Source of the DNA: a virus
Lineage: Duplodnaviria > Caudoviricetes
Virus record (IMG/VR): IMGVR_UViG_3300021256_000008
Span: 1 to 64,000 of that record
DNA length: 64,000 nt
Strand: one strand, 5' to 3'
Shown here: in pieces, positions 4,321 to 49,505 of the stretch
Position numbering within the stretch: position 1 is the stretch's first letter
Layout: each line of letters starts with the position of its first letter
Position numbers and translations under genes: made by a program
Notes under the pieces: model-generated
The model's database searches: none
Told to the model about the DNA's origin: nothing
What the model saw: only the letters and a program-made list of their open reading frames with translations

Positions 4321-4689
4321 TTATTTCTTCTTTTTTGATTCTTTGAGAACACCCATATTCGAAAGAGCTTCTCCTTTTGACTCACCAGCTGTCAGTCGAT
4401 CGCTGAGTTCCATGATTTCCATATTTGTCAGCGGGTGCGATGTCCTGAAATTCAGTCCTGTAATTTCATCCGGGACCTCGCAATTGTGTCCCCCGTTCCC
4501 GAATTTGCTGATTAGTCCGATGATAGTCATCGCACCACCAACAAGCCCGGAACCAAATTGAAACAATCGCATTGGATTCTCCATTAGAAATTCACCAAAA
4601 TCTTTGACTTCTCGCCATGCTTGTTTAAACAAGTTCTTTTCCGGAACTTCTTCGACTTTCTTCTGCAATTCTTCTTTATTGCCTTCCAT
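4321..4689 (-). CDS. Single-TM protein, paralog family B
   Basis: AGGAG RBS; promoter motif 4718-4744. Confidence 0.8.
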   Translation of the reverse strand: MEGNKEELQKKVEEVPEKNLFKQAWREVKDFGEFLMENPMRLFQFGSGLVGGAMTIIGLISKFGNGGHNCEVPDEITGLNFRTSHPLTNMEIMELSDRLTAGESKGEALSNMGVLKESKKKK

Positions 4690-4794
4690 TTTGATTCTCC
4701 TTTCGTACTATAGTTCTCATTAAAATAGTTGTAATTATTTCGAAAAAAAAAAGGAAAGCCGCTGTGGACTTTCCTTTTCCGATTTTTCTCCGAA

Positions 4795-5202
4795 TTACCG
4801 AGGTTTCACCACGTTCTGACAATCCTGCTGGAACTTCTGAAGTCGCTTGTCCTGCTGGAACCATGTATCCATTGCATAACCGGCGAATCCTCCGAAAATC
4901 CCCATCACAAAGAACATGGCGGCCTTGAGCAAATCAGCCCGCGTACGAGCACGATCGTTCTTTACTTTCTTCATCTCGACATCAACTTTGCGATCTTCTG
5001 TTTCGTTTTTCGCATAGTTGTTGAGACGATTCTGTTCCGTCTGATCGTATCCGTTACGGATCTTGAAATAGGTCTCAGCCTCACCAAGTAACTTTCCGCG
5101 GTTTGGATCATTGAATGCCATCCTGGTTAATTCTGCGTAAGAATCACGTTCCAACTTTTCCAACAGTTCCGGGGCCGTCATTTCGTTGATTTCTTTTTCC
5201 AT
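4795..5202 (-). CDS. Coiled-coil protein with C-terminal TM
   Basis: GGAGG RBS; promoter motif 5237-5263. Confidence 0.8.
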   Translation of the reverse strand: MEKEINEMTAPELLEKLERDSYAELTRMAFNDPNRGKLLGEAETYFKIRNGYDQTEQNRLNNYAKNETEDRKVDVEMKKVKNDRARTRADLLKAAMFFVMGIFGGFAGYAMDTWFQQDKRLQKFQQDCQNVVKPR

Positions 5203-5250
5203 AATTTCCTCCTTAAGTTATTCGAAGATCTCTCTCCATTTTACGAACTG

Positions 5251-5493
5251 TCAATTTTGCGAAAGTTTATTCTGCAGCTCAAATGTAAGATCTTTGCGAT
5301 TTACAAGTTGATCAAACCCGATATTAAGTGACATGAACATTCCGTCTCCAACTTCCTCGTCATCGACGTGCTCCAAGCTGATAACTCCGTCGTACGGCTT
5401 CTTTTTCTTCGTATTTTCAAATATAACGCATGCGAAAAATCCGATTACGATTCCAAGAGCCCATACAATTATCATTGTTACCCATTCCGACAT
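5251..5493 (-). CDS. Small protein with N-terminal TM
   Basis: GGAGG RBS. Confidence 0.75.
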   Translation of the reverse strand: MSEWVTMIIVWALGIVIGFFACVIFENTKKKKPYDGVISLEHVDDEEVGDGMFMSLNIGFDQLVNRKDLTFELQNKLSQN

Positions 5494-5519
5494 TGTTTTT
5501 CACCTCCTTTCGACAAATA

Positions 5520-5960
5520 TTATTCTGTTTCCGAGTCTGGTTCATCCTGCGCGTCCAGACCATACCACGATCTGATAAACGTTCCTGTATCTTTAGTCTT
5601 TTGAATAAGTGATTTAAGTTTTTCGTCGGCCTCGCTAAGTGTTTTTGCACTATTTAAAATATCAGTTGCTTCTTTTTTCATCATGAGCTGAAGACAATAT
5701 GTAATAAGGCCGCACTTTTCTTCACAAATATGATGCTCATCGAGTAGTAGACAGCTGCTATCTTCGTAGTCTTCCGGATTAAAATATCGATTTACGGCGT
5801 CAAGTTCCATAAAATATCCTTTTATTGAGGGGTCTAACCATTTATCGAGTTCTTTGATCCCGACGCCTTTTGACATTTTTTCAAGCAGTCTGTTCTCGAA
5901 TAATTCTTTCATGCACACCGCAATAAGATTACATCTGTTTTGTTTCTCTACGTCTTCCAT
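5520..5960 (-). CDS. Hypothetical protein
   Basis: AAAGGA RBS; 146 aa. Confidence 0.75.
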   Translation of the reverse strand: MEDVEKQNRCNLIAVCMKELFENRLLEKMSKGVGIKELDKWLDPSIKGYFMELDAVNRYFNPEDYEDSSCLLLDEHHICEEKCGLITYCLQLMMKKEATDILNSAKTLSEADEKLKSLIQKTKDTGTFIRSWYGLDAQDEPDSETE

Positions 5961-6007
5961 TTTGATTATTCCTTTCTAATAAAAAAAAGAGACTCGCTGT
6001 GAGTCTC

Positions 6008-6256
6008 TTATTGGTCTTGTTGATAGACCGATTCGTATGCAGCATCACAACCTTCAAGAAACGAATAAATGTCCACATCCGAGTTGTCTGATACTACAGA
6101 TTTCGCTGCTCCGATTCCGGCGGAAAAGTAAAACGCAAACTTTTCCCTGTCTTCATCAGACATATCCTTTGTTTCTTCATTCAGTATAGACTGATAGAGA
6201 AACAGGGTTTTCGTTATAGCTTTTTCCGCTTTTGTCTTCAGTTCTTCATCTGTCAT
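6008..6256 (-). CDS. Small acidic hypothetical protein
   Basis: AAAGGA RBS; promoter motif 6294-6320. Confidence 0.75.
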   Translation of the reverse strand: MTDEELKTKAEKAITKTLFLYQSILNEETKDMSDEDREKFAFYFSAGIGAAKSVVSDNSDVDIYSFLEGCDAAYESVYQQDQ

Positions 6257-6342
6257 GTAGATGCTTCCTTTCCGTATATAATGTTATTCTGTGCATTATA
6301 GAAGCTGTCATTATTACGAGAAAAAAAAAGAAGCCGCTCTGA

Positions 6343-6591
6343 TTAAGCGACTTCATAAGATTTAACTGTAATAGTATCTTCTTGGTTAAGATCTTTATTG
6401 ACACCCCAATAAATATCTTTACCGATAATCGATTCATTGTAGCTGCTCAACCAGTCCAGAACAAAGCTTTTTGCTTTCTCCATACTGTCGAACACGCCAC
6501 GAACCTCATAATCGATGATTTCATCTGGTAAAGTTTCTGGTTCTGTGTCTTCTCGAATTTTCCCGACCTTTTCAACAATATAAACTTTCAT
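6343..6591 (-). CDS. Small protein, paralog family C (MKVY.V....GVF.S.EKA)
   Basis: Promoter motif 6611-6637; similarity to 9429..9665 and 9817..10068. Confidence 0.75.
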   Translation of the reverse strand: MKVYIVEKVGKIREDTEPETLPDEIIDYEVRGVFDSMEKAKSFVLDWLSSYNESIIGKDIYWGVNKDLNQEDTITVKSYEVA

Positions 6592-6638
6592 ACAATTAAT
6601 CACTCCTTTCTATTATAAAAGCTGTCATTATTACGAGC

Positions 6639-6941
6639 TTATCTTCTTCGACTAAGTTCCCAGAAGAATCTACTGTACGAATATCTAAGTTCTACAGGTA
6701 AAACGAGTTTTTCAGTCGTGACATACGGGAGAATATCAGGCCCTACAAGCTTAGCACAGTATTCGATGAGTTCCACATTTCTGCGAATATCACCGCGCTT
6801 AATACCATCTCTCGAAGTCGTGTCGCCTTTACCTGACCATCCATCTGCGTTTAAATATAAACGTTTCCATTCCGAATACTGCAGACAGAAGTGCTTTAAC
6901 TCGTAAAAGCGATGCTTACTCAGTGTAAATTCAGTTTTCAT
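6639..6941 (-). CDS. Conserved-looking hypothetical phage protein (RFYELKHFCLQYSEWK)
   Basis: ATG 6941 overlaps the end of the upstream HTH gene. Confidence 0.7.
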   Translation of the reverse strand: MKTEFTLSKHRFYELKHFCLQYSEWKRLYLNADGWSGKGDTTSRDGIKRGDIRRNVELIEYCAKLVGPDILPYVTTEKLVLPVELRYSYSRFFWELSRRR

Positions 6942-7203: not shown

Positions 7204-7252
7204 TACAGCAATCCCCGTTTCACATATTAAAGATTGCCGGCCGACACTAGAA

Positions 7253-7280
7253 AATATAGCAGAATAATGACAGAAGTCAA
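7253..7280 (-). promoter_or_regulatory. Sigma-A-type promoter TTGACT-N16-TATATT with extended -10 (TG)
   Basis: Read directly upstream of 6931..7203. Confidence 0.65.
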
Positions 7281-7430
7281 GGAGCTTTGTAATGGCTTTG
7301 TTTAAGATTTGAAACTATTATCTTAGGACTGAAAAATATGTTTTAGAAATGAATTGTCTACTTTTCACGAAAATATTTTATAAAAACAGTAAAAAGATAG
7401 CAACTGTAATAGTTACTATCTTCTTGAAGA

Positions 7431-9149: not shown

Positions 9150-9350
9150 TTACTTCGAACACATACTGTCAATCACGTTCTCAAATGATTCGCAGCACTC
9201 AATCTTTTCAGTGCCGCCGCAATGATTATCCACGGTGATAGTAACATGCCAGTACGGGCATTCTGTTTCCTCCACCATGAAAATATCCTCGACACGCACT
9301 GCAAATTTCGGTGTTCCGCGCTCAATTTTCTTAAGCTGAATAATTTTCAT
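9150..9350 (-). CDS. Small hypothetical protein
   Basis: AGGAG RBS; promoter motif 9385-9411. Confidence 0.75.
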   Translation of the reverse strand: MKIIQLKKIERGTPKFAVRVEDIFMVEETECPYWHVTITVDNHCGGTEKIECCESFENVIDSMCSK

Positions 9351-9428
9351 TTTGATGTTCTCCTTTCGTATTTCTGGATTTCTCCATTATTGCAGTTGTG
9401 AATATTACGAAAAAAAAAAGAGCCGCTG

Positions 9429-9816: not shown

Positions 9817-10068
9817 CTATTTTACTTCCATTTCCTTGACAAAGTAATAAGAACTCAAAAATTTATAACCCATATCACCGTCACGATATTCGATAGTCGG
9901 AGTTACATCATATTCTTTCGCATCTTCATCGGCGAGTTCTTTTACCCATCCATCGGCTTTTTCTTTCGAATCGAAGACCGCTTGAATAATATAACTCATA
10001 TCGCAGCAGGATGTGTATTCTTCTATAACGATCCAAACTGTTTTAGTTTTTTCCATTTTGATTTTCAT
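9817..10068 (-). CDS. Small acidic protein, paralog family C
   Basis: VWIVIEE...QAVFDSKEKA; start may be 10056. Confidence 0.75.
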   Translation of the reverse strand: MKIKMEKTKTVWIVIEEYTSCCDMSYIIQAVFDSKEKADGWVKELADEDAKEYDVTPTIEYRDGDMGYKFLSSYYFVKEMEVK

Positions 10069-10540: not shown

Positions 10541-10640
10541 TTCTCCTTTCATTTTGAATTTAAACCATATAAATCATCTCCGCTCACCTTCCATATATAA
10601 ATAAAGCCCTCCCGCGGTCGACTTCACGAGAGAGCTTTAA

Positions 10641-10824: not shown

Positions 10825-11232
10825 AATCTCGGAAAATGCTCCTTCGAGAATTTTATCAAATTCCTCTGGCGACACTTCCGTGTATTCGCTCCTAATGAAA
10901 TCAATTGGATTTTCGGCGTGGGCTGCTTCTGAATATATTTCTTGTATACCAAGTCTTCCAACATCTCCATGATCGGTCGGATCGCTATAGTAAATTAAAG
11001 CCGGCAGCCGATATTCATTAAATGATGTGTACGTTTTGTTATACTCTACAATTGGATTATCGATGATTCTAAAATAATATGCTCCGTTTTTACTTTTAAA
11101 TGACAATCCAACTAACTTGCCAAGCTTGTCTTGCAATTCTCTGATATAATCGCCACGCAGTCTCTCATATTCAAGCTTAAGATCTGTAATCTGATTGCTA
11201 ATTTCTTTCATTTTGATTTCCGTATCGCTCAT
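10792..11232 (-). CDS. Hypothetical protein with N-terminal coiled coil
   Basis: AAGGAG RBS; 146 aa. Confidence 0.75.
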   Translation of the reverse strand: MSDTEIKMKEISNQITDLKLEYERLRGDYIRELQDKLGKLVGLSFKSKNGAYYFRIIDNPIVEYNKTYTSFNEYRLPALIYYSDPTDHGDVGRLGIQEIYSEAAHAENPIDFIRSEYTEVSPEEFDKILEGAFSEIKSLGKRGDAK

Positions 11233-13044: not shown

Positions 13045-13857
13045 TTATTCCGAATATCTCCACCAGGTATACGCCGGTGCTTTCGGGTCATTTGCGAGAA
13101 AGATTCCGTGTGGTGTATAAATCGTATAAACGTAATCGGTTCCAACCGGATCTGATACCTGATTCTGCTTGAGTCTCTCAGATTTCATCGCAAGATTGAA
13201 GTAATAATCCTGCACGGGATTCGTATCATATGATGCGATAAACTGTCCTTCCTGAAATGCAATTTCGTCAATTGTCATACCAGTGTACATAGAATTCTTA
13301 AGCCGGTTGTCAACGCACCGGTACAGCGTCATAAAATCGAAATCCGAATAGTTATACTTCTCGATAAAATTGCGACTACCGTATCCAAGTTTTGCTTTCA
13401 CTTGAGCATTAGCTTTCATGAGATTCTCAATAGACTTCTCTGCCGCAAGTTTATCTGCTTCCTGCTGCGCAATAAATGCCTGATATTCTGCATCTTTCTG
13501 AGCCGCAACCGAATCAGCATAGGCCTGCGCAGTGCGTCTTGTGTGAATATTGATTCCCCAAATGACGAAAGACACGCAAAGCAGAAAGATTAGGAGTGCA
13601 ATTGTCCACCGATAAAGAATCTCGAACCATGGATACTTCTGCTCCAGATCATGCTCTCTCTTGCCATTTTCTTCGAACACCTTTTTCCAGGTATTACCAT
13701 CGAACAAATAATCACAGAATCTCTTCCATTTTGATTTTTTCGTGACGCTTGGGACCGGATTAGTTTGATTATACTTACAAATGTTTTGCGTTGACTCTTC
13801 ATACGATATAATCGGAAGCTGTTTCTTCGGCATGTAAACTTTCATTGTTTCATCCAT
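13045..13857 (-). CDS. Membrane-anchored SleB/Hydrolase_2-like protein, catalytic Glu apparently replaced
   Basis: TM, coiled coil, then AKLGYGS...CVDNRL...TIDEIAFQEGQF...NPV, matching the LAxxxYxEA...VLNRV...TIxEVxxQxxQF pattern. Confidence 0.55.
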   Translation of the reverse strand: MDETMKVYMPKKQLPIISYEESTQNICKYNQTNPVPSVTKKSKWKRFCDYLFDGNTWKKVFEENGKREHDLEQKYPWFEILYRWTIALLIFLLCVSFVIWGINIHTRRTAQAYADSVAAQKDAEYQAFIAQQEADKLAAEKSIENLMKANAQVKAKLGYGSRNFIEKYNYSDFDFMTLYRCVDNRLKNSMYTGMTIDEIAFQEGQFIASYDTNPVQDYYFNLAMKSERLKQNQVSDPVGTDYVYTIYTPHGIFLANDPKAPAYTWWRYSE

Positions 13858-13860: not shown

Positions 13861-14463
13861 TTATTTCTCCTTTTTATTTAGTTCATCTAATATTTTATAT
13901 ACTTTCTGAATGGATTCTTTTCTTTTACGTTTCTTATGATACTTGTAATGTTTTCTCTGTTTCGGTGTATTCCGAGGCATCTTTTTTACATCTTCTTCTG
14001 CCAATCGATAGCTCTTGTCGTGCTCCTCAATATACTGAAACACTTTTTGTAAATGCGTTGATGGAAGAAAGTCTCTCTGCTTATGAAAGGCACCACGCAT
14101 TAACTTTTTATCTGGATATGTATTGTCAAAATGTCCACTCCCTCCGTGATTCATATGAAATAAATGCCAATCCTGAGTATTTTCTCGCCAAAATATTTTC
14201 CAAAATCCCACATCAGTTCGAACACATAATGCATTATCGATACGGTCGTAAGATATATCTTTTCTGCCAGTTTTATGGAACTTGTAAACCAGCCCCTTTA
14301 TACTTCGACAAAATTTGCATCCGCAGTATCCGGTATCTTTAGCCTTCCATTCCGGCAATCGTATTTGATTTTCTTTCTTGATCTTACGAGTGTACGGGCA
14401 ATACTGGTCATGAAAAATTCTATTACCTTTAGCGCTAATGATGACCTCTGACAAATTTTTCAC
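13861..14463 (-). CDS. Hypothetical protein with N-terminal metal-binding motif (FHDQYC...GYCGCKFC, Ada-Zn-like) and basic C-terminus
   Basis: Cys/His pattern; GTG start. Confidence 0.6.
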   Translation of the reverse strand: MKNLSEVIISAKGNRIFHDQYCPYTRKIKKENQIRLPEWKAKDTGYCGCKFCRSIKGLVYKFHKTGRKDISYDRIDNALCVRTDVGFWKIFWRENTQDWHLFHMNHGGSGHFDNTYPDKKLMRGAFHKQRDFLPSTHLQKVFQYIEEHDKSYRLAEEDVKKMPRNTPKQRKHYKYHKKRKRKESIQKVYKILDELNKKEK

Positions 14464-14556
14464 CTTGCTTTCATTTTGAATAAACTTCGCGAAAATAAAA
14501 AAAAGAAAGAGGATCTGTTTAAAAGATCCTCTAAATTCCTTTCGTCTTAGCTCATA

Positions 14557-14832: not shown

Positions 14833-14929
14833 TTCTATTATAGAAACTGTGATTTTTACGAATTGAAAAAAAAAGATAGGCGTTGTAAATCATGCGAAAT
14901 ACAATACCTATCTTTATTTCATTTTGATT

Positions 14930-19802: not shown

Positions 19803-20022
19803 TTACCTCACCATCCTCTGTTAAGGTATTTGTGTCCTTACTTCCATTTTGATTTTCATTGAGAATCTGGCGCTCGGTTTCCTGAATCGCCTGAATCAAG
19901 CCGTCACACTTACCGTATGCATAACTCAGAAGCGTACGATTCTGATTGCCCTTAACCTCCACCTGATCGATAGCTTCCCGAATCTTCAGAATCTCATTAA
20001 CGATGTCCTGCAATGTACTCAT
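19771..20022 (-). CDS. Small hypothetical protein in tail module
   Basis: AAGGAG RBS; 83 aa. Confidence 0.7.
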   Translation of the reverse strand: MSTLQDIVNEILKIREAIDQVEVKGNQNRTLLSYAYGKCDGLIQAIQETERQILNENQNGSKDTNTLTEDGEVIGEQNSESAG

Positions 20023-25329: not shown

Positions 25330-25365
25330 AAGTGTCCCTCCTTCCGACTTCCATTTTGAATTAAT

Positions 25366-31929: not shown

Positions 31930-32475
31930 TTATCCTCTTGTGTTATATTTGGCTCGCCGCTGTGCATTTAAAGCTGACCATTCGGCGGCGAGTTCCTGTC
32001 TGCCTCGTTTCTTAGGTGCCTGGCTCTTAACCGCGCATGTTTCAATCAAGGTTAACAGGTGGTTTAAATGCCATTTAGCGCACGGATCAAACGGGATATT
32101 GTAATAAGTCATCCAGAAATAAATCAGCTCATTGGTCATGCTTTCTCGAGGCGGACGCTGCGGTCGTTTCGGGAACACCGTGGCAGTTTGCGAATCGGCA
32201 ATATAGTCTGCAATCCGCTTCTTCATTCTTTGATCGATCGCATAGAACACGTTGGGATCCACGTTTCTGGTGGTGCACATGCATCGAATGTAATCCGTGA
32301 ATTCTTCATCAGTTTTCGGTTTTCTGGAAAGATAAGCCTTATGCCATTTAGCTTCCCATTTTGAAATGCTGATGAGGCTGTGTTCCAGTTCAAGCTTTGT
32401 ATATTTTGTCACTACAAAGCGATTGATCCGTTCGTCATAAAATTCTTTTTCCGGAATGACAAGCGGAAGCGGCAT
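31930..32475 (-). CDS. Tail assembly chaperone (downstream, gpT-like)
   Basis: Position between the first chaperone and tape measure gene; TNELIYFWM...IPF...KWHLNHLLTLI. Confidence 0.6.
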   Translation of the reverse strand: MPLPLVIPEKEFYDERINRFVVTKYTKLELEHSLISISKWEAKWHKAYLSRKPKTDEEFTDYIRCMCTTRNVDPNVFYAIDQRMKKRIADYIADSQTATVFPKRPQRPPRESMTNELIYFWMTYYNIPFDPCAKWHLNHLLTLIETCAVKSQAPKKRGRQELAAEWSALNAQRRAKYNTRG

Positions 32476-34394: not shown

Positions 34395-34448
34395 AAAATC
34401 ACTTCTCTTCCATTTTGATTAGTTTCGTCTAACCGCTGATTAAAACGA

Positions 34449-36464: not shown

Positions 36465-36573
36465 TCATCATGACCTCCTATAGTATCGATAAACTTCCAT
36501 TTTGATTTTGTTCCGCGTCATCGTTTTCATGTTCCGCATACTAGAAGTCGAAAATTGGAAGCTTCTCTATAAT

Positions 36574-37989: not shown

Positions 37990-39024
37990 TTATGATTTCT
38001 TAGATTTCAGAAGAGGACCAAACAGATTGGAAAGCTCTTCACCGGACATATTCGACAGAAACTCCCATTCTTCCATTTCGTCGTGCATTCCATCGACGAT
38101 GTTCTGTGCTGTCCACATCTGATACTGTGTATATTCCCCGTTTTTGTATCCCTGCTCAATTTCTTTAAGCGCGTCTTCGGCTTCCTTGATCACCTGCTGG
38201 GCCTGCTGTTTTCCGTTATCCGCCCACTCCTTCAGTTTATCCGGGGAAGACGGAATTTCAGTTGCATAGCTTCCGAGCATGGATCTGGTTTCGCTATTGG
38301 AATTAGAAGGAGAGCCGTTATGGTCTTTCAGTTTCTGCTGAATTTCTTCCTTGGCCTTTCTTGCTGTTTCTTTAGCATTGGATGCTACTTCAGATGCTTT
38401 TTCCTTAACATCATCTGCCGCATTTTCAACAGCTTCTCCTGCCTCGGCGACCTTTCGTCTTGCCATCTCGGCTTTCATGCCGGCTGGGTGCTTCTGAAGC
38501 TCGGACCAGGCCTTTTTCATGCGATCTTTAGAAGCCTCGCTGAAGTTTTCATCGGAAGCCTGTTTTCCGGCGTCCTGATACTCCTTATATGCTCTGGCGG
38601 AAGCCTTGGCTTCATTAACCGCACCCGAAGCCTTATTCTTAAACTCGTTCCCGATCTGTTCGGCACGGGTCCTGGCTTTGGAAGCTTTTTCCTGCGCTTC
38701 GCCCATTCCGGCTCTGGCCTTTTCCTTAGCTTTATTCACCGTTTGCTGAGCGGCAGCTTTCTTTTCAGCCAGATACGCCTTAAGCTCTTCCTGCGTATAG
38801 AAATATCTGGTACGCCCATTCTCTTCAATCTTCTGAATGTACTTATGGGTGGTTCTTACGCCCCTGCCGACACCCTGCTTTACAGCGCCAGCTGCTGAAC
38901 CGACTGCAGATCGTGCAGTTCTTAAGGCTCCGCTTGTGCGCTGTCTTATATCGGAAAGCGATGCATGCGCAATGTAAGGACTTCCATTTTGATCGAACAG
39001 TAGAATGTAATCGTCTTCATTCAT
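37990..39024 (-). CDS. Lys/Ala/Glu-rich helical protein with IAH leader; candidate internal virion protein
   Basis: MNEDDYILLFDQNGSPYIAH; HKYIQKIEENGRTRYFY shared with 39098..39910. Confidence 0.75.
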   Translation of the reverse strand: MNEDDYILLFDQNGSPYIAHASLSDIRQRTSGALRTARSAVGSAAGAVKQGVGRGVRTTHKYIQKIEENGRTRYFYTQEELKAYLAEKKAAAQQTVNKAKEKARAGMGEAQEKASKARTRAEQIGNEFKNKASGAVNEAKASARAYKEYQDAGKQASDENFSEASKDRMKKAWSELQKHPAGMKAEMARRKVAEAGEAVENAADDVKEKASEVASNAKETARKAKEEIQQKLKDHNGSPSNSNSETRSMLGSYATEIPSSPDKLKEWADNGKQQAQQVIKEAEDALKEIEQGYKNGEYTQYQMWTAQNIVDGMHDEMEEWEFLSNMSGEELSNLFGPLLKSKKS

Positions 39025-39097: not shown

Positions 39098-39910
39098 CTA
39101 GTTCTTCTTGAAATGCTCATTAAGTTCCGAAATAAGAGCATCCTTATACTTGTTCACAAAGCTAGTGACATGCTCTTTTTTCTCATCGGTAACTTCTTTC
39201 AGTGCAATCTGCGCAAAATCGCCGGTCTCTTTAAAAAACGTCTTTGCGGCTTCTCTTTTCTCACGCTTGGCCTTCTTGACTGCCTCACTAGATGCATTCA
39301 AATCCCGCTTGGCATTAGCCTTTTCGAACTTAATCGGCGGAACCGCTTCAAAAGCACCAACGTGCATCGCCAGAGCCTGTAAGCCAACGTTTTTCATGTA
39401 TTCCTTGAAATTATCTTTTTTGGCTTTCCGAGCACGTTTTGCTTCGGCCTGCTTTTTCTTATAATCTGCAAGTGCCTCAACTGCCTCAGCATACTCCCGT
39501 TCCTTCTGATTCTTTGGAGCAAAGCCAGTTCCGCCGGTCACAGGAGTAGAGCTATTAAGCCCGTCTCCGCGTTTATAGACGCTTCCTTCTTTCGATTTAC
39601 CGGTCACTTTCTTAGAATGTCCGACAGGACGCCTGCCTGGAGTGGTAACGGTGCCTCTTCTGAATTTATCAGATCCTTTACCTTCATAAATGCCGCCGTT
39701 TTCCGAAACTGATCTGGTACCTGCACTTCGATTACGCTGATAGGCATCCCATTCCTGCTTACTGTAGAAATAGCGTGTTTTCAGACCGTTCTTTATTTTC
39801 TCATAGTACTTATGATCTTTCTTACTTTCATTTTGATTCTGTCTACGAAAGAAGGCATGAGAAATGTAAGGATGACCGGATTCATCAAAACTCACAATAT
39901 AGTCTGACAT
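39098..39910 (-). CDS. Basic protein with ISH leader; candidate internal virion protein
   Basis: MSDYIVSFDESGHPYISH; HKYYEKIKNGLKTRYFY. Confidence 0.75.
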   Translation of the reverse strand: MSDYIVSFDESGHPYISHAFFRRQNQNESKKDHKYYEKIKNGLKTRYFYSKQEWDAYQRNRSAGTRSVSENGGIYEGKGSDKFRRGTVTTPGRRPVGHSKKVTGKSKEGSVYKRGDGLNSSTPVTGGTGFAPKNQKEREYAEAVEALADYKKKQAEAKRARKAKKDNFKEYMKNVGLQALAMHVGAFEAVPPIKFEKANAKRDLNASSEAVKKAKREKREAAKTFFKETGDFAQIALKEVTDEKKEHVTSFVNKYKDALISELNEHFKKN

Positions 39911-40373: not shown

Positions 40374-40921
40374 TGCTCCCTTCGAACTGTATACTTCTTT
40401 CCTGTAACAAATCCGGAAGCATCCGGTTGGTTGTATTTAGTGGCCTGATACGCATTAATGCTGTTATACGCCAGATTACCCGGAATACCCGCAAGGGCAT
40501 GGGCCAATGCCGTTTCACCAGCAGTTACAAAACGGTTGTATTCCTTGCTGTTAATTGTCATCCCTTTATTGCTTGCATCAGAAAGAATCTTACTTACAAG
40601 CTTTTCGCCGGAACGAATAGCGTCGTCATATTCCTTGGCTTTTGCGGTATGCTCTTCATACTTATCGTCTTTACTCTTCTGATAAGCTTTTTCAGCTTTG
40701 ATCTTTTCTTTTGCGCTTTTGTAACGAAGGCGAGCATTTTCGGATTCGATCTTATTCAGGCTTCTCTGTGTACTACTCGCGCTGTCTGAATTATACCGTT
40801 TCTTTCCGGCATCGGTTAACGTACCGTCCTCATTTTGATACCGCCGGACGCCCCATTTCTGTCCTTTGATACCATGGTGAGCGAGGTAATCGTTTTCATA
40901 ATAATCCATAAAGTCGCTCAT
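40370..40921 (-). CDS. LAH-HGIKGQKWGVRRYQN family protein; candidate internal virion protein
   Basis: ENDYLAHHGIKGQKWGVRRYQNEDGTLTDAGKKRY. Confidence 0.8.
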   Translation of the reverse strand: MSDFMDYYENDYLAHHGIKGQKWGVRRYQNEDGTLTDAGKKRYNSDSASSTQRSLNKIESENARLRYKSAKEKIKAEKAYQKSKDDKYEEHTAKAKEYDDAIRSGEKLVSKILSDASNKGMTINSKEYNRFVTAGETALAHALAGIPGNLAYNSINAYQATKYNQPDASGFVTGKKYTVRREH

Positions 40922-40935: not shown

Positions 40936-42681
40936 TTATTCAAACATGTCCCTGTTGATCCTATAGGCAACATAGGCATCGAGCATCGCAGAGACATTAT
41001 CGATCTTCTCTTCGCGATGCTTCTTTCTTAATTTTCTGTTTCCATTAGTATCTTCCTGGGCAACACAATGGCCCATACAGAACTGCATAATATCTTCGTC
41101 AAAAATAAGTTCACGGCGTTCCGCAAGAACCTTCAGTTCACCAAGCGGAACTGACTCGGTCTTTACACCCTGAGGAACTTTTTCAATTCCGTATGGTCCG
41201 TTATCGATCTCCCAACGATTGATAAACACCGGCGCATTATATGGGTCGTATCCAACGCACATGACGTTATAGCGCTTATCGTTAATAAACTGATAGAGAT
41301 CTTCATAAACCATACCGATATCAAGAACGGTGGAGTCCATAATAACAAGACTACCTTCACGAAGGAACTTTTCATATTCCTGTCGAAGTGCTCTCGGAAG
41401 CTTTTGGAACGTATAGGACGTAATATAGCTTCGCGCCTTAACTCCAAAGCCTCTTCCCGGAATCGGGAACAGAAATGTAAAAGCACAAAAGTCGTCACCG
41501 AGCGAAAGGTCAGCACCCATCGAGCAGCTCATACCATCGAAGTACTGGCGGTGATGCGGCTTGGTTTCTTCATAAGTAAAGAAATACGTGTAACCTTCAC
41601 ATGGGATTCCAAAACGTTTGGCCAGAATATCATTACGGTTAGAAGGGCTCTTTTCAGAACGTTCTTTCTCGAGCTTATAAGTCTCGTACGTTACTGTGTG
41701 ACCAAGATTCGGGTTGGCCTTCAGCCACATATTCGGATTCTCGAGTTCCGTAAGATCGTCAAGCTTATACCACCAGATGGACACATGAGGATTGTAGTAA
41801 TCGCCCTTTAAGATGTCCATCAGTTCCATTTTGATTGTATCGCCAGGCCCATTTCGAACGGTTCCTTCCGATGATGTCGCAACAATTAGCCAATCGTCAA
41901 CTTTGGCCGCTCCCTGTTCAAGAGCGCCAACGACATCTTCGTTTACAACTCCGGAAAGCCATTCGTCAACGGTTGAGTATTTGCATCTTGCGCCCTGAAG
42001 CTTATCAATGCGCATAGGACGCGACTCGATAATGGACTGAGTTTCGAAGTTTTCAATACCCTTCTTGGTGGCTGCAATCTTGACACGATCCGCTTTCTTC
42101 CCGGTCGTATTCTGGAGCGATCCTTCTGTCATGAACTGAAGAACCGGGCCTCTTGCTCTGGCTATCGCGATCTTAAGAGGCAACAGCGTTTCTTCGGATT
42201 GGCGTATCGTAGGTGCCGTGATTATTTGGTCAGTAGATTCTTCGTCCATGATCAGACCATACGCTTGAATACATGTGCAGTATAGACTTTTTGCTGCGCC
42301 ACGACCGACAATCAGATACTGCTTATTACGCAACCGCTTCTTAATGTACCGCGTCTCCAGATGAACTCCGGGACCGTAGCTGTTCGGCACCCAGACATCT
42401 CGCCGGATGAAATAGAACCAAGAATAAATATCCTCGGCCCATAATTTAAATGAGTCGAGGAGTCTAAGGTCTCCGCCGTCCGTAAGGGTTAGTTCCGATT
42501 CACAAAAGTTGATCCAACCGTCCATGACCGTATCGTCATAGTAGCAGCGCGGATCGGCGATAAGACCGTCTATAATGTTCATTTGAAGAGCGACTTCCCG
42601 ATTCACCGGAATCTCTCTTCTTAGTACGGCGTCTCGAAAAGCGCCGTAATATTTTGGTACAGCGGTGTTCGATAACGCCAT
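40936..42681 (-). CDS. terL: Terminase large subunit
   Basis: YLIVGRGAAKS Walker A, TVDEW Walker B, GADLS..DDF and KIDNVSAMLDA nuclease motifs. Confidence 0.93.
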   Translation of the reverse strand: MALSNTAVPKYYGAFRDAVLRREIPVNREVALQMNIIDGLIADPRCYYDDTVMDGWINFCESELTLTDGGDLRLLDSFKLWAEDIYSWFYFIRRDVWVPNSYGPGVHLETRYIKKRLRNKQYLIVGRGAAKSLYCTCIQAYGLIMDEESTDQIITAPTIRQSEETLLPLKIAIARARGPVLQFMTEGSLQNTTGKKADRVKIAATKKGIENFETQSIIESRPMRIDKLQGARCKYSTVDEWLSGVVNEDVVGALEQGAAKVDDWLIVATSSEGTVRNGPGDTIKMELMDILKGDYYNPHVSIWWYKLDDLTELENPNMWLKANPNLGHTVTYETYKLEKERSEKSPSNRNDILAKRFGIPCEGYTYFFTYEETKPHHRQYFDGMSCSMGADLSLGDDFCAFTFLFPIPGRGFGVKARSYITSYTFQKLPRALRQEYEKFLREGSLVIMDSTVLDIGMVYEDLYQFINDKRYNVMCVGYDPYNAPVFINRWEIDNGPYGIEKVPQGVKTESVPLGELKVLAERRELIFDEDIMQFCMGHCVAQEDTNGNRKLRKKHREEKIDNVSAMLDAYVAYRINRDMFE

Positions 42682-42700
42682 TTTGAATTTTGCTCCTTAA

Positions 42701-44272: not shown

Positions 44273-44872
44273 TTAGTCGTTCATACCGGCGGCACGAATC
44301 ATCGAAATGTACTTCTTGAGTTCCTGCTTCTCGTAATCGGAAGCAGATGTATCAAAGAGCTTTTCGAGACAGGAGACCGCGCGGTCGCTTATGCTGTGAC
44401 GACTGTAGCCGTGACCACGATCGGAGTATTCAGGACCATAGTACGGATCGCCGCAATAGCTGCGGTTCATGAACTCAGAAGGATATCCGGGATAACCTGA
44501 GTAGCCATCGGAATTGCTCTGATACCAGCCATGAACACCATAGTTGGGATTCCCATAGCTTCCGCGATTCATGCTACCATAACTGCGATCCGAGTAGACA
44601 GCCCGCTCAGGCATGCCGTAAGAAGTGATATGATACTGACGGTAAGGTTCGCCGTGCATAGAATATCCACGCTCAGCGTACTCACCTGGTTCTTTCTTCT
44701 CTTCCTCGGCCTTGCACTCCTCTACACGGCAGCAAAGCTCGTCGTACAGATGAAGACCGTCAATGGCGGCTTTGGTTTCGGCAGGAGTGAGGTCATTCTT
44801 CTGCATGAGTTCGTCGAGGCATTTCGCTACGACTTTCTTCATGTTTTCCATGGATTCAGTTTTCAGTTCCAT
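44273..44872 (-). CDS. Tyr/Gly/Ser-rich hypothetical protein (Cys/Gly-rich module)
   Basis: GGAGG RBS; low-complexity YG/YS centre. Confidence 0.75.
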   Translation of the reverse strand: MELKTESMENMKKVVAKCLDELMQKNDLTPAETKAAIDGLHLYDELCCRVEECKAEEEKKEPGEYAERGYSMHGEPYRQYHITSYGMPERAVYSDRSYGSMNRGSYGNPNYGVHGWYQSNSDGYSGYPGYPSEFMNRSYCGDPYYGPEYSDRGHGYSRHSISDRAVSCLEKLFDTSASDYEKQELKKYISMIRAAGMND

Positions 44873-44886
44873 TTTGAATTTCCTCC

Positions 44887-46916: not shown

Positions 46917-46948
46917 TCAGCCCTCCGATTATTTATGTTCATTTTGAT

Positions 46949-47275
46949 TTACTTATCGGAATTCTCGACTTTAACCTTCGCAACCTTCATGTTCAGAAGA
47001 TCGGAAACAGTGATGTTGCCGAAGTTAAACGCAGCCGTCTCTTCATCCGGATTTAGGGTGATAGTACCGGCAACATCCTTACCGTTCTTGTAATAGCTAT
47101 TAGAACTGATCTGCAGCAGAGCTCCGAGAAATGCGTCGACGGCAACGATCGTTCCGACAATCGCATCGGCATAGGGAAGATTCCACAGCGGAGCGAGCGC
47201 CGCATACAGAGTGCCAAGTGCAGGCAGGACAATCTGGGCAATGTACTTCAGTACGTCATAGGTTTTATTATTCAT
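46949..47275 (-). CDS. Holin, Dp-1 family
   Basis: YDVLKYIAQIVLPALGTLYAAL...W.LPY..AIVGTI.AVDAFLGALLQISS. Confidence 0.85.
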   Translation of the reverse strand: MNNKTYDVLKYIAQIVLPALGTLYAALAPLWNLPYADAIVGTIVAVDAFLGALLQISSNSYYKNGKDVAGTITLNPDEETAAFNFGNITVSDLLNMKVAKVKVENSDK

Positions 47276-47796
47276 GATTCTTCTCCTTCCTCTTTTAAGA
47301 AACTATGTTCTTGAATGCATTTTTCATAGAGCCGCCTTATTTCTTTAATTGCGGCTTCTATAACACCATTCTTGATTTCATTCTTCTGAATGTGTGATTC
47401 ATAAGCATCACACTTTTTGATCATAAAATCGAATTGCTCTTTTGTATGCTTTCGCCCATTCATGCAGGCGTTTGCAAACTCAAGGATATCGCGTCTGGTA
47501 TCTTCCAGAGACTTTTTTTCCGATTCGGTGATGTGCTCAGAAAGCTGAGTCTGAACATAATCGACCTTTTTGTCGAGAGCTTTAATTTCGCCACGAACCG
47601 TATCCATTTTCTTATCGATCTTATCGTTGAATCTGGATCCGATCCACTTAATAATAGCGCTCCACGGGCTCCACTTGATTTTCGGGATGATCTCGATCCC
47701 GATTGACATCAGAAAGATCAGCACGCCCCAGAAAGTCGTCGCTTTCCAACCGATGTAATTTAAAAAATCCTGAAATGTCATAGGATTTTCCTCCAA
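47272..47796 (-). CDS. Membrane-anchored lysis-cassette protein
   Basis: IEIIPKIKWSPWS...RRDILEFAN...HTKEQF; between endolysin and holin. Confidence 0.6.
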   Translation of the reverse strand: MEENPMTFQDFLNYIGWKATTFWGVLIFLMSIGIEIIPKIKWSPWSAIIKWIGSRFNDKIDKKMDTVRGEIKALDKKVDYVQTQLSEHITESEKKSLEDTRRDILEFANACMNGRKHTKEQFDFMIKKCDAYESHIQKNEIKNGVIEAAIKEIRRLYEKCIQEHSFLKEEGEES

Positions 47797-47911
47797 AGAA
47801 AAAATAGAGCGAACCGTTTTATTGGAACGCCCTGTTAAAATTAAACCGGCCCGTTGCTATGAAACCATACAATAATGGCTGTCATAGCCCCAAACCACAA
47901 AAGAAACCACT

Positions 47912-49492
47912 TCATACTTTAAGCAGCTCCTTCCATGTTTTTGGGCCGATTTCACCGTCCAGTTCGAGACCTTTTGCTTTCTGGAAATGTCGGATCTTCT
48001 CATCCATTTCCTTACCGAAGATACCGGTTACGACGATGGTGTAGCCCCAGCACTGCAAAGCTGCCTGCGCAAGCTTCACATCGGAGCCCTCATCTTCCAT
48101 TTTGATTTCGCGAACTCGAATGTTTGGAAACGGAATCTGAGTTACGGGCTCAATAACGGTCTCTTCCTGCTTCGGCTTCGGTGTGTTAAGCGCTGCCTCC
48201 AACGCCTTTCTAGTATCAGGACCGACTTCACCGTCAACAGGATCAAGACCGTGCTCAGTCTGGAACTTCTTCACAGCATTGTAGGTATCCGTGCCGAAAT
48301 CTCCGTCCGCGCCCCATTTACCGAGATCGTATCCAAGCTTCATGAGCTTCTGCTGAAGATCTTTCACGTCTTCGCCGCTTACACCCATTCGAAGAATGCG
48401 ATCAGAAGTATTAGAGAATACAGCCGAAACATCACCATTTGATGCAAGCTCCCATCTCGGTCTTCCGTAACCATAAATCGACGCACTCGACAGGGAATAT
48501 GTACGTCTGCTTACCTGATCGGATGAGTTACCTTCAATTGTTGTCACCATTCCGCTGGAAACTGCTTCGACAATTCCTGTATGGCTCACTTCGCCGGCTG
48601 AATAGGTAAAGAAGATCTGATCACCTGGTTTCGGATCATTCGTCCAACGTCCTGCCTGCTTGTAGTACTGTGCTGAATAAAGGCATCCGGCGCCGGCACT
48701 GTTATATGGCTGACATACCATCTGCCGTCCGATTTCCGCGCCGAAACATTTCACGAACAGCCAGTCTACAAATACATCGCACCAGGCATAACCGTTCTTG
48801 TTTCCATTATAGAAATTCCCGATGGCAGCCAGGTCTCTTGCGTATTTTGTCCAGTTACCTGCTCCTGAGTTTGCGGTCTTATCGTCAAGACTTGCGTTTG
48901 AAGCTTTTTCATGGTAACCGAGTTCGGCTCGTGCCTGGTTGAGAGCCTTTTCGATTGCCTCATCTGCACTAATAGCAGAAGAACCGTCGTCAAGAGTAAG
49001 TGCCGAGAACATTTTAAAGAAGTTCTGAGCTGCCTGATAGCGGTTCACCATGTTGTTTGTTTTTTCTTTCGGATTCTCCCATTTGTCGAGGAGCTCCCAG
49101 GTACAGGCTTTCAGATCCGAACTGCTTGTTACCAGTTTCCACTGATTTGGGAAATAATTTTTCATTTCCCAGAGCAGATACTGAATCTGAGTTTCAGAGT
49201 CTCCGATCGATTTACCCCTTGCTCGATGGAAATCGTACATGCGGCCTTTTCTTGTGGGTTCGGTCCACTGTGCATATCCATAGCCAACGCCGTCATAGGA
49301 AAACTGATGTCTGGTACGCTCTCCTGAATCTATCTGAGCTGTGTAAACATCATCGGCAATTCCCTTTGAGTCTTCGGCGTTGTTTGGCCGGAACGCACTT
49401 TCGAACTGAATCTGTCCAAGAGTCGCGCAGGCTCCTGCTTGAGTCATACCGGCTTCTCGAAAGCGCCGATAAAGGTGTTCTTGTGTTGTCAT
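47912..49492 (-). CDS. Endolysin: phage-tail-lysozyme-like domain, CHAP domain, two PG-binding domains
   Basis: LGQIQFES...GYGYAQWT; WCDVFV...HTGIV...TIEGNSS; DVKDLQ..L..LGY..DGDFG..T..AVKKFQ..GL..DG.VGP.T twice. Confidence 0.92.
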   Translation of the reverse strand: MTTQEHLYRRFREAGMTQAGACATLGQIQFESAFRPNNAEDSKGIADDVYTAQIDSGERTRHQFSYDGVGYGYAQWTEPTRKGRMYDFHRARGKSIGDSETQIQYLLWEMKNYFPNQWKLVTSSSDLKACTWELLDKWENPKEKTNNMVNRYQAAQNFFKMFSALTLDDGSSAISADEAIEKALNQARAELGYHEKASNASLDDKTANSGAGNWTKYARDLAAIGNFYNGNKNGYAWCDVFVDWLFVKCFGAEIGRQMVCQPYNSAGAGCLYSAQYYKQAGRWTNDPKPGDQIFFTYSAGEVSHTGIVEAVSSGMVTTIEGNSSDQVSRRTYSLSSASIYGYGRPRWELASNGDVSAVFSNTSDRILRMGVSGEDVKDLQQKLMKLGYDLGKWGADGDFGTDTYNAVKKFQTEHGLDPVDGEVGPDTRKALEAALNTPKPKQEETVIEPVTQIPFPNIRVREIKMEDEGSDVKLAQAALQCWGYTIVVTGIFGKEMDEKIRHFQKAKGLELDGEIGPKTWKELLKV

Positions 49493-49505
49493 TTTGAATC
49501 ACAAC

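Follow-up and report, generated by a model that had tools for sequence, protein, structure and literature searches.

Layout of the window and the motif A word

The virus record is complete at 85,078 bp, and the window analysed here spans its bases 1-64000. The minus strand carries all genes, and the features described below lie on it unless stated otherwise. The gene for a single-chain two-barrel RNA polymerase of 936-940 aa (53151..55973) is directly followed by an 88-aa gene (52913..53179, phrog_4303). The ~45 kb of virion, lysis and adjacent genes that lie beyond this polymerase gene and past a probable genome end are hereafter called the late block. A tyrosine-type integrase (11449-12525) and an XRE-type HTH protein (7431-7682) are also encoded.

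A short one-directional DNA word, motif A, recurs with the 8-base core TCAAAATG, mostly in the form AAWTCAAAATGGAAG. The core has 25 matches on the minus strand and one on the plus strand of the 64,000-bp window, while shuffled sequences gave 5.3 +/- 2.5 with both strands pooled (maximum 12). Over the whole 85,078 bp the count is 28 on the gene strand versus 1 on the other, making TCAAAATG the most over-represented 8-mer of the genome (28 observed, 3.4 expected, z 13, third-order Markov model). The exact 14-mer AATCAAAATGGAAG is found seven times in the window, always on the minus strand, and yielded 0 matches in 100 shuffles. A preliminary description of this DNA had reported the seven exact copies, 22 or more cores and a lone opposed one near 14126, all of which our counts reproduce. 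It had also called the orientation that of transcription, correctly so since all genes are on the minus strand. Its statement that no site lies at 50-64 kb has to be amended: one core (61425-61432, within 61421..61434) sits in the primase-polymerase gene, with weak flanks and a matrix score of 15.5, and is possibly there by chance. The single plus-strand match (14126..14133) has flanks without a match and is consistent with chance.

The preliminary description had proposed a null preserving codons and start contexts as a check on the enrichment, which persists under it. Coding-internal sites number 14, whereas 100 such shuffles gave 4.2 +/- 1.8 (maximum 10), a 3.4-fold excess, so that about four of these 14 may be chance occurrences. 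The other 14 fall in non-coding DNA or start contexts, which make up 12.5% of the genome and would be expected to contain ~0.5 (~30-fold). The claim that selection acts on the nucleic acid holds. Scored by a 22-column weight matrix, the gene strand has 22 sites of at least 16, all between 49584 and 4694, i.e., within the late block, and the other strand has 0. Strong sites are absent from the early/replication half. No conservation of flanks or structure was found around motif A.

Placement of the sites relative to genes

Seven sites overlap start codons that already have an upstream Shine-Dalgarno sequence. Their ATG initiates the lysozyme/CHAP/PG-binding gene (site 49486..49499; gene 47912-49492, start at 49492), a 199-aa gene preceded by AGGAGG (44866..44879, class 1), the TerL gene (42675..42688, start at 42681, class 1), a 79-aa gene (10050..10063), a 66-aa cassette gene (9344..9357), a 146-aa gene (exact 14-mer, 5954..5967, 15 nt after a terminator) and a 122-aa gene (exact 14-mer, 4683..4696). 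The overlaps at TerL and at the lysozyme/CHAP gene, previously termed endolysin, had been noted before. The sites of the 66-aa and 122-aa genes lie 56 and 50 nt, respectively, downstream of early-type promoters (motif C, below).

Other sites occupy gaps or gene 5' approaches, and those described earlier after the portal, protease-capsid fusion, tape measure and last tail genes are all present. One lies in a 35-nt gap directly 3' of a stop codon, 29 nt before a 117-aa gene (46936..46949). The protease-capsid fusion gene 34449-36464 is flanked by exact 14-mers: one is in the gap behind the portal gene, 36 nt ahead of it (36494..36507), and the other follows it and precedes the connector-like gene 34056-34394 (MARFY...) by 19 nt (34407..34420, class 2). 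The 36-nt gap after the tape measure gene holds a site 25 nt before the Dit-like gene 24829-25329 (25348..25361), and the 610-aa tail gene 17970-19802, with TTG as its called start, has an exact 14-mer 45 nt ahead of that codon (19841..19854). An intrinsic terminator (T-run at 14874) comes ~53 nt after the site (14916..14929) that directly follows the last tail gene. The next site (14468..14481), with a terminator 17 nt before it and a 197-aa gene starting 20 nt after it, is the sole promoter-like element in its gap, and some other terminator-to-gene gaps likewise have no such element besides motif A. Upstream of the RadC-like gene 10081-10500, a 291-nt gap contains another site (10546..10559).

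About half of the sites are inside genes, in all three frames (I-K-M-E, Q-N-G, S-K-W), as originally observed. A site in a 73-aa ORF, 87 nt upstream of the lysozyme/CHAP gene start (49573..49586, core 49577-49584, score 17.4), is the first strong one of the late block. In-frame sites are the exact 14-mer at codon 465 of the lysozyme/CHAP gene, just before its last PG-binding domain (48094..48107), one within TerL (41823..41836, D-T-I-K-M-E-L) and one 21 nt into the 146-aa gene 10792-11232 (11205..11218). Out-of-frame sites are located near the 5' end of the 270-aa ORF 39098-39910 (39825..39838) and 37 nt into the 344-aa ORF 37990-39024 (38981..38994). The 181-aa gene downstream of the major tail protein (32353..32366, LEHSL.S.SKWE) and the 270-aa gene 13045-13857 (exact 14-mer, 13723..13736, S-K-W) each carry one. 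A one-mismatch variant with good flanks, TCAAAATA, is in the tape measure gene (28808..28821, score 18.4); a weakly flanked core in a 183-aa gene (40827..40840, score 10.0) is possibly due to chance. The relative G004 shares the sites at 48094, 11205 and 13723, the last at an orthologous position.

Sites just after terminators show a modest excess only (6 of 157 versus ~2 expected), and no motif A was found in front of the late genes starting at 47781, 44200 and 32976 behind hairpin terminators. Comparison between genomes revealed two registers at gene 5' ends: in the TerL, connector or capsid gene, the motif coincides with the start codon in one genome but precedes it by 14-40 nt in another. 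In the relative G002 the motif lies 16 nt upstream of the TerL start, while in phages Circum and Count its ATG is the start codon of the connector-like gene. Such placement fits a signal that defines 5' ends.

Relatives, the phage polymerase and the early-type motif C

The same core, orientation and late-half restriction were found in all 12 other examined relatives that encode a homologous two-barrel, HTH-bearing RNA polymerase. Their hosts belong to two bacterial phyla and range from 33% to 61% G+C, and some of these phages have no integrase. Counts on the gene and other strand are, for IMG/VR relatives, 15/0 (G002), 25/2 (G004), 23/1 (G005), 7/0 (G003) and 5/2 (G001, a 68%-complete record) and, for cultured phages, 11/0 (P162), 3/0 (HotFries), 22/2 (FP_oengus), 6/0 (Circum), 4/1 (OhMyWard), 9/1 (ReqiPepy6) and 7/0 (Count). 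Across 22 polymerase loci with ~10 kb flanks, a single site lies upstream in total versus ~40 downstream. Several slots recur. The protease-capsid gene has a site at its 5' end in 9-10 of 11 genomes, and further shared positions are the 5' end of the connector gene, the start of TerL, the TerL-internal site (8/11, including HotFries with its 61% G+C genome) and the tail-gene SKW site, where TCA-AAA-TGG is retained in 8/11 genomes despite rare codons. Calculated from the codon usage of the respective genome, the odds that Ser-Lys is written TCA-AAA are 0.005-0.065 per actinophage, and rare synonymous codons are kept at internal sites in genomes of 52-61% G+C.

Besides the polymerase, the conserved core of this phage group comprises structural and replication genes (bioRxiv 10.1101/842583). 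The polymerase, our proposed reader of motif A, matches phrog_4291 (E 2.5e-303). It carries ADYDGD as its catalytic motif and two HTHs, one sigma-region-4-like (residues ~72-121) and one C-terminal. Structural matches of its AlphaFold model are QDE-1, RDR2 and, among the non-virion polymerases of Thermus phages, gp64/gp62. Promoter motifs have been mapped for related two-barrel phage polymerases, a separate one for each enzyme (PMC10770324). The 88-aa protein, 40-49% identical between Firmicutes-type relatives and gp57 of Streptomyces phage HotFries, is a candidate polymerase partner.

The non-late half of the genome is filled by motif B and by motif C, a bipartite element composed of TTCGNA, 13 nt, CTATAATG (YTWWWATG) and GAG/RAG, which has ~20 copies in the genome and 0 in the late block; its form in G005 is CTATAATGGAA. 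Judged by its context, i.e., terminator, motif, Shine-Dalgarno and gene in that order, motif C is promoter-like. One copy follows a terminator T-run 61 nt before a start codon (9382..9411) and another lies upstream of the motif A site 4683-4696 (4715..4744). Unfiltered intergenic copies end in RTG plus purines in 17 of 18 cases. The 3' part of motif A (AATG-GAAG) is common to the start-proximal AATG-RAG of motif C, and the correlation of the two matrices peaks at the ATG-aligned offset (0.54 versus <=0.29 elsewhere), a value that is partly circular as its motif C sites were picked with a WWRTG filter. Sigma-70-type (sigma-A-like) promoters are not enriched in the late block (27 found versus 28.7 expected).

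Motif A as a putative late promoter

Because motif A accompanies the polymerase in every relative tested, across two host phyla, it is most likely a late promoter and not a stoperator. We consider it somewhat more probable than not that motif A is a late promoter or initiator read by the phage's own two-barrel RNA polymerase. The link between the two rests on co-occurrence; the reading by the polymerase and the position of the transcription start are both inferred. Several observations argue against a promoter. The start-codon sites have their own Shine-Dalgarno sequences, and two of them lie 50-56 nt past an early promoter, one of these two in a cassette of a single gene; only a leaderless mRNA would give a second promoter there a purpose. 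The site 14916-14929 runs into a terminator, the genes from 47781, 44200 and 32976 have no motif behind their hairpin terminators, about half of the sites are gene-internal with some expected by chance, and the post-terminator excess is small.

The preliminary description had likened the sites to the stoperators of mycobacteriophage L5, asymmetric immunity-repressor sites that block prophage transcription. The asymmetric, co-oriented, multi-copy arrangement and the two sites just downstream of early promoters agree with this, and since an integrase, also found in G002, G004 and G005, and an XRE-type HTH protein are present, a repressor could exist, which leaves a small residual probability. 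Repressor sites and stoperators are expected to co-vary with immunity specificity. Motif A is invariant across phyla, with identical core and layout in Lactococcus phage P162, Streptomyces phage HotFries and Microbacterium phage Count, none of which has an annotated integrase or repressor; Count is described as lytic (PMC7302621). The motif is missing from the early/replication half that a prophage would most need silenced, many sites are gene-internal at orthologous positions, none overlaps an early promoter as an operator would, and the word resembles the start-proximal part of the phage's own promoter-like motif. Nucleic-acid selection and orientation stand, but the L5 analogy is very improbable. 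A complete lack of function, with the excess explained by coding bias, the context of start codons and conserved peptides of common ancestry, is barely credible. Chance does account for some internal sites, AAAATG-GAA is a favourable start context and two conserved internal sites fall in conserved peptides (IKMEL, SKWE), yet both excesses over the nulls, the 22 to 0 strand ratio, the recurrence of strand bias and late-half restriction in 13 of 13 genomes examined and the retention of rare codons speak against it.

Of the alternatives already listed in the preliminary description, the late-transcription signal is the reading favoured here, while an RNA-binding site is its rival. An RNA element UCAAAAUGGAAG at ribosome-binding sites could be bound by a phage protein, cut by a nuclease or act as a translation enhancer, comparable to T4 RegA operators or RegB cleavage sites, and would tune translation or processing of the late polycistronic mRNA. 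Half of the sites are on a start codon or 11-25 nt before one, with the motif tail as Shine-Dalgarno sequence, so a bound factor would cover the ribosome site in both registers. The motif is always on the transcribed sense strand, and at 13 of 22 upstream sites the mini-ORF opened by its ATG ends no more than 8 nt from the real start, in four cases as an ATGA/GTGA overlap. Recognition by the universally conserved ribosome could also explain the cross-phyla invariance of the 8-mer, but would leave the late-half restriction and the confinement to this phage group unexplained. No conserved RNA-binding protein is known in this phage group, out-of-frame internal sites such as SKW are conserved across phyla without a ribosome-site role, flank and structure conservation is absent and the likeness is to a DNA promoter-like motif; we give the RNA element a low to modest probability. 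A further possibility, to which we would give a slim chance, is elongation control, in which a promoter-like (-10-like) word on the non-template strand pauses the phage polymerase, coupling transcription to ribosome loading or loading a processivity factor, as in sigma-dependent pauses, ops/RfaH sites and qut sites. NET-seq work has found pause sites enriched at translation starts, which the start-codon positions recall. Strict orientation fits non-template-strand recognition, and motif A resembles only the downstream half of the bipartite motif C. The long operons in which the motif lies also hold hairpin terminators that no motif follows, which makes read-through necessary in any case. Conversely, ~25 sites per genome far exceed the ~1 per operon of known loading sites, some sites directly follow terminators in gaps without an upstream promoter, and the late block would have no promoters except for read-through across the probable genome end.

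Under the late-promoter reading, the polymerase, alone or with a late factor, would recognise the compact one-part motif A on the gene strand and melt its A-rich CAAAAT stretch, and RNA would start at or next to the ATG-G. Where the motif precedes a gene by 11-25 nt, its purine tail (GGAAG/GGAGG) would serve as Shine-Dalgarno sequence at the extreme 5' end of the mRNA, whereas a motif whose ATG is the start codon would yield a leaderless mRNA. Gene-internal sites may act as internal promoters for downstream virion genes, and early and replication genes would instead use the two-part motif C. Motif A would then most likely represent a previously undescribed late promoter.

Abundance, orientation and placement of motif A

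The minus strand carries essentially all genes of the 85,078-bp record. In the direction of transcription, a small conserved gene and a 488-nt non-coding stretch separate the polymerase gene from the late block (lysozyme/CHAP gene, TerL, portal, protease-capsid fusion, major tail protein, tape measure and Dit), after which come the integrase, many small terminator-bounded cassettes and the replication genes. Motif A, a strictly oriented word with the core TCAAAATG, fills the ~45 kb after the polymerase gene. The seven exact copies of its 14-nt form AATCAAAATGGAAG listed in the preliminary description were all recovered in place on the minus strand, and shuffled sequences contained none. Likewise, its estimate of 22 or more cores with a single one in the opposite orientation agrees with the 25 minus-strand and 1 plus-strand copies of TCAAAATG in the window (5.3 +/- 2.5 in shuffles, both strands together), while its statement that no site occurs at 50-64 kb has to be corrected for one with weak flanks at 61425-61432. 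Over the whole genome (85,078 bp), the core is found 28 times on the gene strand and once on the other, and a de novo scan returned it as the most over-represented 8-mer (28 observed vs 3.4 expected). Alignment of the sites yielded the consensus aaa[A/T]TCAAAATG[G/A]AA[G/a], with no conservation farther out and no upstream box. At a weight-matrix score of 16 or more, 22 sites were found on the gene strand and 0 on the opposite one, all between 49584 and 4694; strong sites are thus confined to the late side.

The enrichment also withstood the codon-preserving shuffle proposed in the preliminary description, in which each gene had its synonymous codons permuted while start contexts stayed as they were. 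Fourteen sites are fully internal to coding sequences, against 4.2 +/- 1.8 in the shuffles; the remaining 14 lie in non-coding or start context, which makes up 12.5% of the genome and where ~0.5 would be expected. Since this null is exceeded, motif A is real, and the explanation that it is a chance word of no function has next to no probability, even if a few internal core-only sites may be due to chance.

About half of the sites are located at gene 5' ends and about half in coding sequence. Two registers were distinguished at the 5' ends, either of which can occur in one and the same gene: in class 1 the start codon is the ATG of the motif, with a Shine-Dalgarno sequence upstream, and in class 2 the motif lies 11-25 nt upstream of the gene and its tail, GGAAG or GGAGG, is the Shine-Dalgarno sequence. 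Seven sites overlap Shine-Dalgarno-led start codons, and others are found 11-50 nt upstream of starts. Six of 157 sites follow a terminator by at most 40 nt (about 2 expected). In some gaps between a terminator and a gene, motif A is all that resembles a promoter; a number of late genes preceded by hairpins lack the motif. Of 22 mini-ORFs opened by the motif ATG, 13 end no more than 8 nt from the true start, which we count neither for nor against translation from this ATG because TGA is common in Shine-Dalgarno spacers.

Several positions are occupied in orthologous genes. Of 11 genomes, 9-10 carry the motif where the protease-capsid gene begins, and in 7 of these its ATG is the start codon; 6-7 genomes have it at the 5' end of the connector gene (MARFYG), and 4 have it at the start of TerL. 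It also occurs within TerL (D-T-I-K-M-E-L) and within a tail gene (LEHSL.S.SKWE), each time in 8 genomes. The odds that Ser-Lys is written TCA-AAA, given the codon usage of the genome itself, are 0.005 in the Streptomyces phage HotFries and 0.013-0.065 in the other actinophages, and the synonymous positions are therefore under selection.

Two individual sites deserve mention. Right after the last tail gene, a high-scoring site is followed within ~53 nt by a strong terminator (both within 14874-14929 (-)); if motif A is a promoter, the only product of this unit would be a hairpin RNA of ~50 nt. In the lysozyme/CHAP/PG-binding gene (47912-49492 (-)), the site at 48094-48107 contributes an in-frame ATG at codon 465, just before the last PG-binding domain and without a Shine-Dalgarno sequence. 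If the motif starts a leaderless mRNA, this codon would give a free 62-aa binding domain, and free binding domains arising from internal starts are known in some endolysins. The sequence context of this site is identical in the IMG/VR relative G004, though the two polymerases are only 51% identical.

The polymerase and the distribution of motif A among relatives

The product of gene 53151-55973 (-) matches the phrog_4291 profile (E 2.5e-303) and, weakly, the Pfam RdRP family (E 0.008). It contains a sigma-region-4-like HTH near residue 90, a second HTH near the C-terminus and a catalytic loop of the DxDGD type (ADYDGD, residues 518-523). A sequence search against solved structures returned only weak sigma-region-4 matches to the HTH, so the catalytic part was placed by fold search. 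An AlphaFold model built with 18 homologues (pLDDT 73.7) matched QDE-1, the plant RDR2 and the non-virion polymerases gp64/gp62 of Thermus phages in Foldseek with a probability of 1.00, and bacterial beta-prime subunits weakly and with low probability. On this model, the protein is a predicted single-chain two-barrel (double-psi beta-barrel) RNA polymerase similar to YonO, QDE-1 and P23-45 gp64. Homologues were detected in 250 cultured-phage records and 53 IMG/VR loci, and the gene has been described in a preprint as a signature of a supergroup of Actinobacteria and Firmicutes siphophages, with no mention of a promoter (10.1101/842583). No bench test of this computationally predicted polymerase family was found in the literature.

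All 13 genomes examined, every one of them polymerase-bearing, carry both a homologous polymerase and oriented motif A, with the same core, the same orientation and the same restriction to the late half in every relative. In IMG/VR genomes whose polymerases are 50-73% identical, counts on the gene strand and the other strand are 15/0, 25/2, 23/1, 7/0 and 5/2, with the same extended consensus. The Lactococcus phage P162 (polymerase 35% identical, 33% G+C) has 11/0, all in its first 19 kb, and HotFries (61% G+C) has 3/0 in its first 10 kb, against an estimated ~0.2 expected from base composition. Counts are 22/2 in FP_oengus, 6/0 in Circum, 4/1 in OhMyWard, 9/1 in ReqiPepy6 and 7/0 in Count, five phages in which the reversed word used as a control occurs 0-3 times. 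Among 22 loci centred on the polymerase gene, the ~10-kb upstream flanks hold 1 gene-strand site in total and the downstream flanks about 40. Matches to the exact 14-mer in IMG/VR were mostly single ones due to chance, the only contigs with several matches being relatives, and a near-identity search with the late block against cultured phage records gave no match. Five IMG/VR loci with 2-3 copies of the 14-mer (L048, L038, L059, L062 and L074) are late-region fragments of further relatives, with TerL, portal and capsid 40-84% identical and 4-8 co-oriented core sites each in 5-12 kb.

Other features of the polymerase neighbourhood were noted. An 88-aa acidic protein (phrog_4303; 52913-53179 (-)) is encoded immediately after the polymerase gene, a position that is conserved, and is 40-49% identical between Firmicutes-type relatives and HotFries gp57; it is a candidate polymerase partner or specificity factor. 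GenBank annotates ReqiPepy6 gp106 (Rhodococcus phage; locus L202) and its ReqiPoco6 counterpart (hit H46) as 'similar to Lactococcus phage 1706 gp75, structural protein', which suggests that the polymerase is packaged in the virion and injected. If so, the early-type motif would be its first target. The 488-nt non-coding stretch (52425-52912) contains G/C-run palindromes (CCCGGGGGAGGG ... CCTCCGGGGGGA) and is probably a physical genome end or packaging site; the contigs of most relatives stop ~500 bp beyond the polymerase gene. A tyrosine integrase (11449-12525 (-); Pfam Phage_integrase, 52-54 bits), located where the late block ends, is followed by a stretch resembling a tRNA 3' end (11366-11448; GGTTCAACTCCCCTCATCTCCACCA), likely the attP core; ARAGORN detected no tRNA gene and no complete tRNA in the window. 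An integrase occupies the same place in three IMG/VR relatives (G002, G004 and G005), and this 85-95 kb subgroup, which includes the present genome, looks temperate, unlike P162, HotFries and Count.

Early-type and other motifs

A bipartite motif, motif C, consists of TTCG[TCA]A, a 13-nt spacer, YTWWWATG and RAG. Its copies immediately follow terminator T-runs and precede start codons by 45-70 nt. About 20 of them are distributed over the cassettes and the replication region, and the late block has none; they span 2471-9725 (e.g., 9382-9411, 4715-4744, 7721-7750 and 8080-8109) and 67-73 kb of the genome. Conserved copies of motif C occur in G001, G002, G004, G005, P162 and HotFries, with variation in the upstream half: it is TCCGCA in G005 and GTTTTACATACC in P162, while HotFries has TCGCA...TTTATAGTG-AGACCCC. 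Motifs A and C share their start-proximal part, AATG then purines (ATGGAA in G005). None of the strong motif A sites overlaps a copy of motif C, and two motif A start-codon sites are located 50-56 nt after one. The Shine-Dalgarno sequence often begins 3-6 nt after the ATG of motif C; transcription would consequently have to start at or right after this ATG, and not 7 nt downstream as at sigma-type promoters.

Motif A was also considered as part of sigma-A-type promoters, a possibility rejected for its lack of upstream -35 conservation and because the late block has no more sigma-70-type matches than chance would give (27 found vs 28.7 expected).

A second oriented 8-mer, motif B (T[TG]ATATT[TC]), has 90 gene-strand copies against 9 on the other strand, mostly in early and replication genes and densest at 53000-64000, 1-10000 and 64-85 kb of the genome. 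In coding sequence it occurs 76 times against 20 +/- 3.6 in codon-preserving shuffles (94 vs 13 in G005), with no conservation of its flanks. Motif B is present in five relatives of 60-95 kb, in all of which its distribution is complementary to that of motif A, and is not enriched in Lactococcus phage P162. Candidate roles are those of a primase site, a pause site or a signal for RNA decay or cleavage.

Interpretation of motif A and comparison with known systems

The most economical reading, to which we give slightly better than even credence, is that motif A is a class of promoters for the polymerase, the sole transcription protein common to these phages. This reading is favoured because motif C is promoter-like by its context, points to a start at or just after its ATG and shares its start-proximal part with motif A, because the two registers match what is expected of a signal defining an RNA 5' end, and because some sites are all that resembles a promoter ahead of their gene. 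Transcripts started in these registers would be leaderless or carry a minimal Shine-Dalgarno leader. The start-codon sites behind good Shine-Dalgarno sequences, the site before a terminator and the hairpin-preceded genes devoid of the motif fit a promoter poorly, and the Shine-Dalgarno-led start-codon sites would be useful as promoters only if the mRNA were leaderless. Some of these features would be accounted for by an element acting on the RNA at the ribosome site, which we hold to be unlikely, or by a promoter-like site where the elongating enzyme pauses or is loaded, which appears unlikelier still.

The preliminary description had proposed stoperators, the repressor sites of mycobacteriophage L5. 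Such sites belong to temperate phages, depend on the immunity repressor and vary along with immunity; they are scattered over early and late regions, in short intergenic gaps, and the operator of the early lytic promoter is a site of the same type. As an asymmetric site of ~13 bp in many copies and a single orientation (28 vs 1; 14-mer consensus), motif A does resemble the gp71 stoperators of L5 and the Cluster A mycobacteriophages, which are likewise asymmetric, 13-14 bp long and present in tens of copies in one orientation, some of them in short intergenic gaps. The presence of an integrase in G000 (the present genome), G002, G004 and G005 keeps this proposal barely alive. However, P162, HotFries and Count carry motif A with no annotated integrase or repressor, and the word is unchanged in lytic relatives and across phyla. 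Strong sites are restricted to the late-side ~45 kb, half of them in coding sequence at orthologous positions and none placed as an operator at an early promoter, whereas the motif is missing from the early half, the part that a prophage has to keep silent; no link to a repressor is known. A repressor-site function is accordingly very improbable. The cluster of Count has been described as lytic (PMC7302621).

Returning to the promoter reading, a bolder version joins several claims: TCAAAATG would be the universal late initiator of the supergroup, free of sigma factors, read by the polymerase and starting transcription at the A of its ATG. We regard this combination as tentative and, taken jointly, rather doubtful. 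Under it, the reader throughout the Actinobacteria and Firmicutes siphophage supergroup would be a minimal, probably virion-carried two-barrel RNA polymerase. RNA synthesis and translation would begin at one and the same signal, thereby giving a leaderless capsid mRNA, and the 8-mer would be invariant across enzymes only 35-45% identical because the catalytic core itself recognises it.

Among systems tested at the bench, Thermus phage P23-45 is the closest parallel. Its two motifs belong to two different polymerases and to early genes, the late genes being left to the host enzyme. This phage encodes two two-barrel polymerases, the virion gp96 and the non-virion gp64, each with its own mapped motif, a short and conserved one upstream of start sites, and relatives devoid of the enzyme are devoid of the motif (PMC10770324). 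Both systems involve phage-encoded relatives of the cellular polymerase core, the model of the present protein matching the gp64/gp62 fold, and in both two motif classes split the genome into temporal blocks. Unlike in P23-45, a single polymerase gene is here accompanied by an early and a late motif, and the motif sequences are unrelated; the P23-45 motifs were tied to their enzymes by ChIP-seq and 5'-end mapping, while the proposed link for motif A comes from sequence comparison.

YonO of the Bacillus prophage SPbeta, a single-chain two-barrel DNA-dependent RNA polymerase, transcribes the late genes of its phage, and the study describing it explicitly leaves its promoter undetermined (PMC5467207). 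YonO differs in having just one mapped start site, from which it reads a single late operon, and is only a distant relative of the present enzyme. The SPbeta yonN-yonK gap, which probably contains that start site, has no word resembling TCAAAATG or motif C, and a sampled 30-kb stretch of SPbeta has 3 and 2 copies of the core on the two strands.

Promoters of the T7 family and T4 late promoters (TATAAATA) are compact, strictly oriented, present in multiple copies and conserved alongside a transcription protein of the phage. The start site is part of them or directly adjoins them, the region around it is rich in purines, and many of them are located within the genes upstream. Motif A shares with T4 late promoters its one-part build of ~8 bp without an upstream box. 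T4 late promoters are read by the host polymerase with gp55/gp33, and the present polymerase is unrelated to T7 RNAP. Motif A further differs from both in the invariance of its core over two host phyla and its very frequent overlap with start codons.

Start-associated sequences (SAS) are cluster-specific and found solely upstream of start codons. SAS and ESAS of Cluster K mycobacteriophages and Cluster EF Microbacterium phages are mentioned in PMC7302621. They resemble motif A as short conserved motifs at or just upstream of the translation starts of some genes, with a Shine-Dalgarno-like part and a putative function only. Motif A was rejected as a SAS, being also found inside genes and 11-50 nt upstream of them and being common to many clusters and phyla; it also differs in travelling with the polymerase gene.

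Literature on the YonO promoter, ReqiPepy6, phage 1706 transcription and the motif string contained no description of motif A, the matches to the string being unrelated primer sequences, and no published 5'-end data were found for this phage group. A phage-polymerase promoter is known as a kind of element; what is new is the polymerase family, the one-part late form, the invariance across phyla and the overlap with start codons. To the question of how minimal single-chain enzymes related to cellular RNA polymerase locate their promoters, motif A brings a very short candidate promoter contrasting with the two-part early motif, both conserved in the 13 genomes examined. Many of the 250 polymerase-bearing records are student-isolated Arthrobacter, Gordonia and Streptomyces phages, and Lactococcus dairy phages and Faecalibacterium gut phages are also among them. 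If motif A is a promoter, late operons would be better annotated in all of these genomes and a compact orthogonal promoter/polymerase pair would be at hand; if transcription starts at the embedded ATG, transcription start and translation start would be set by a single signal.
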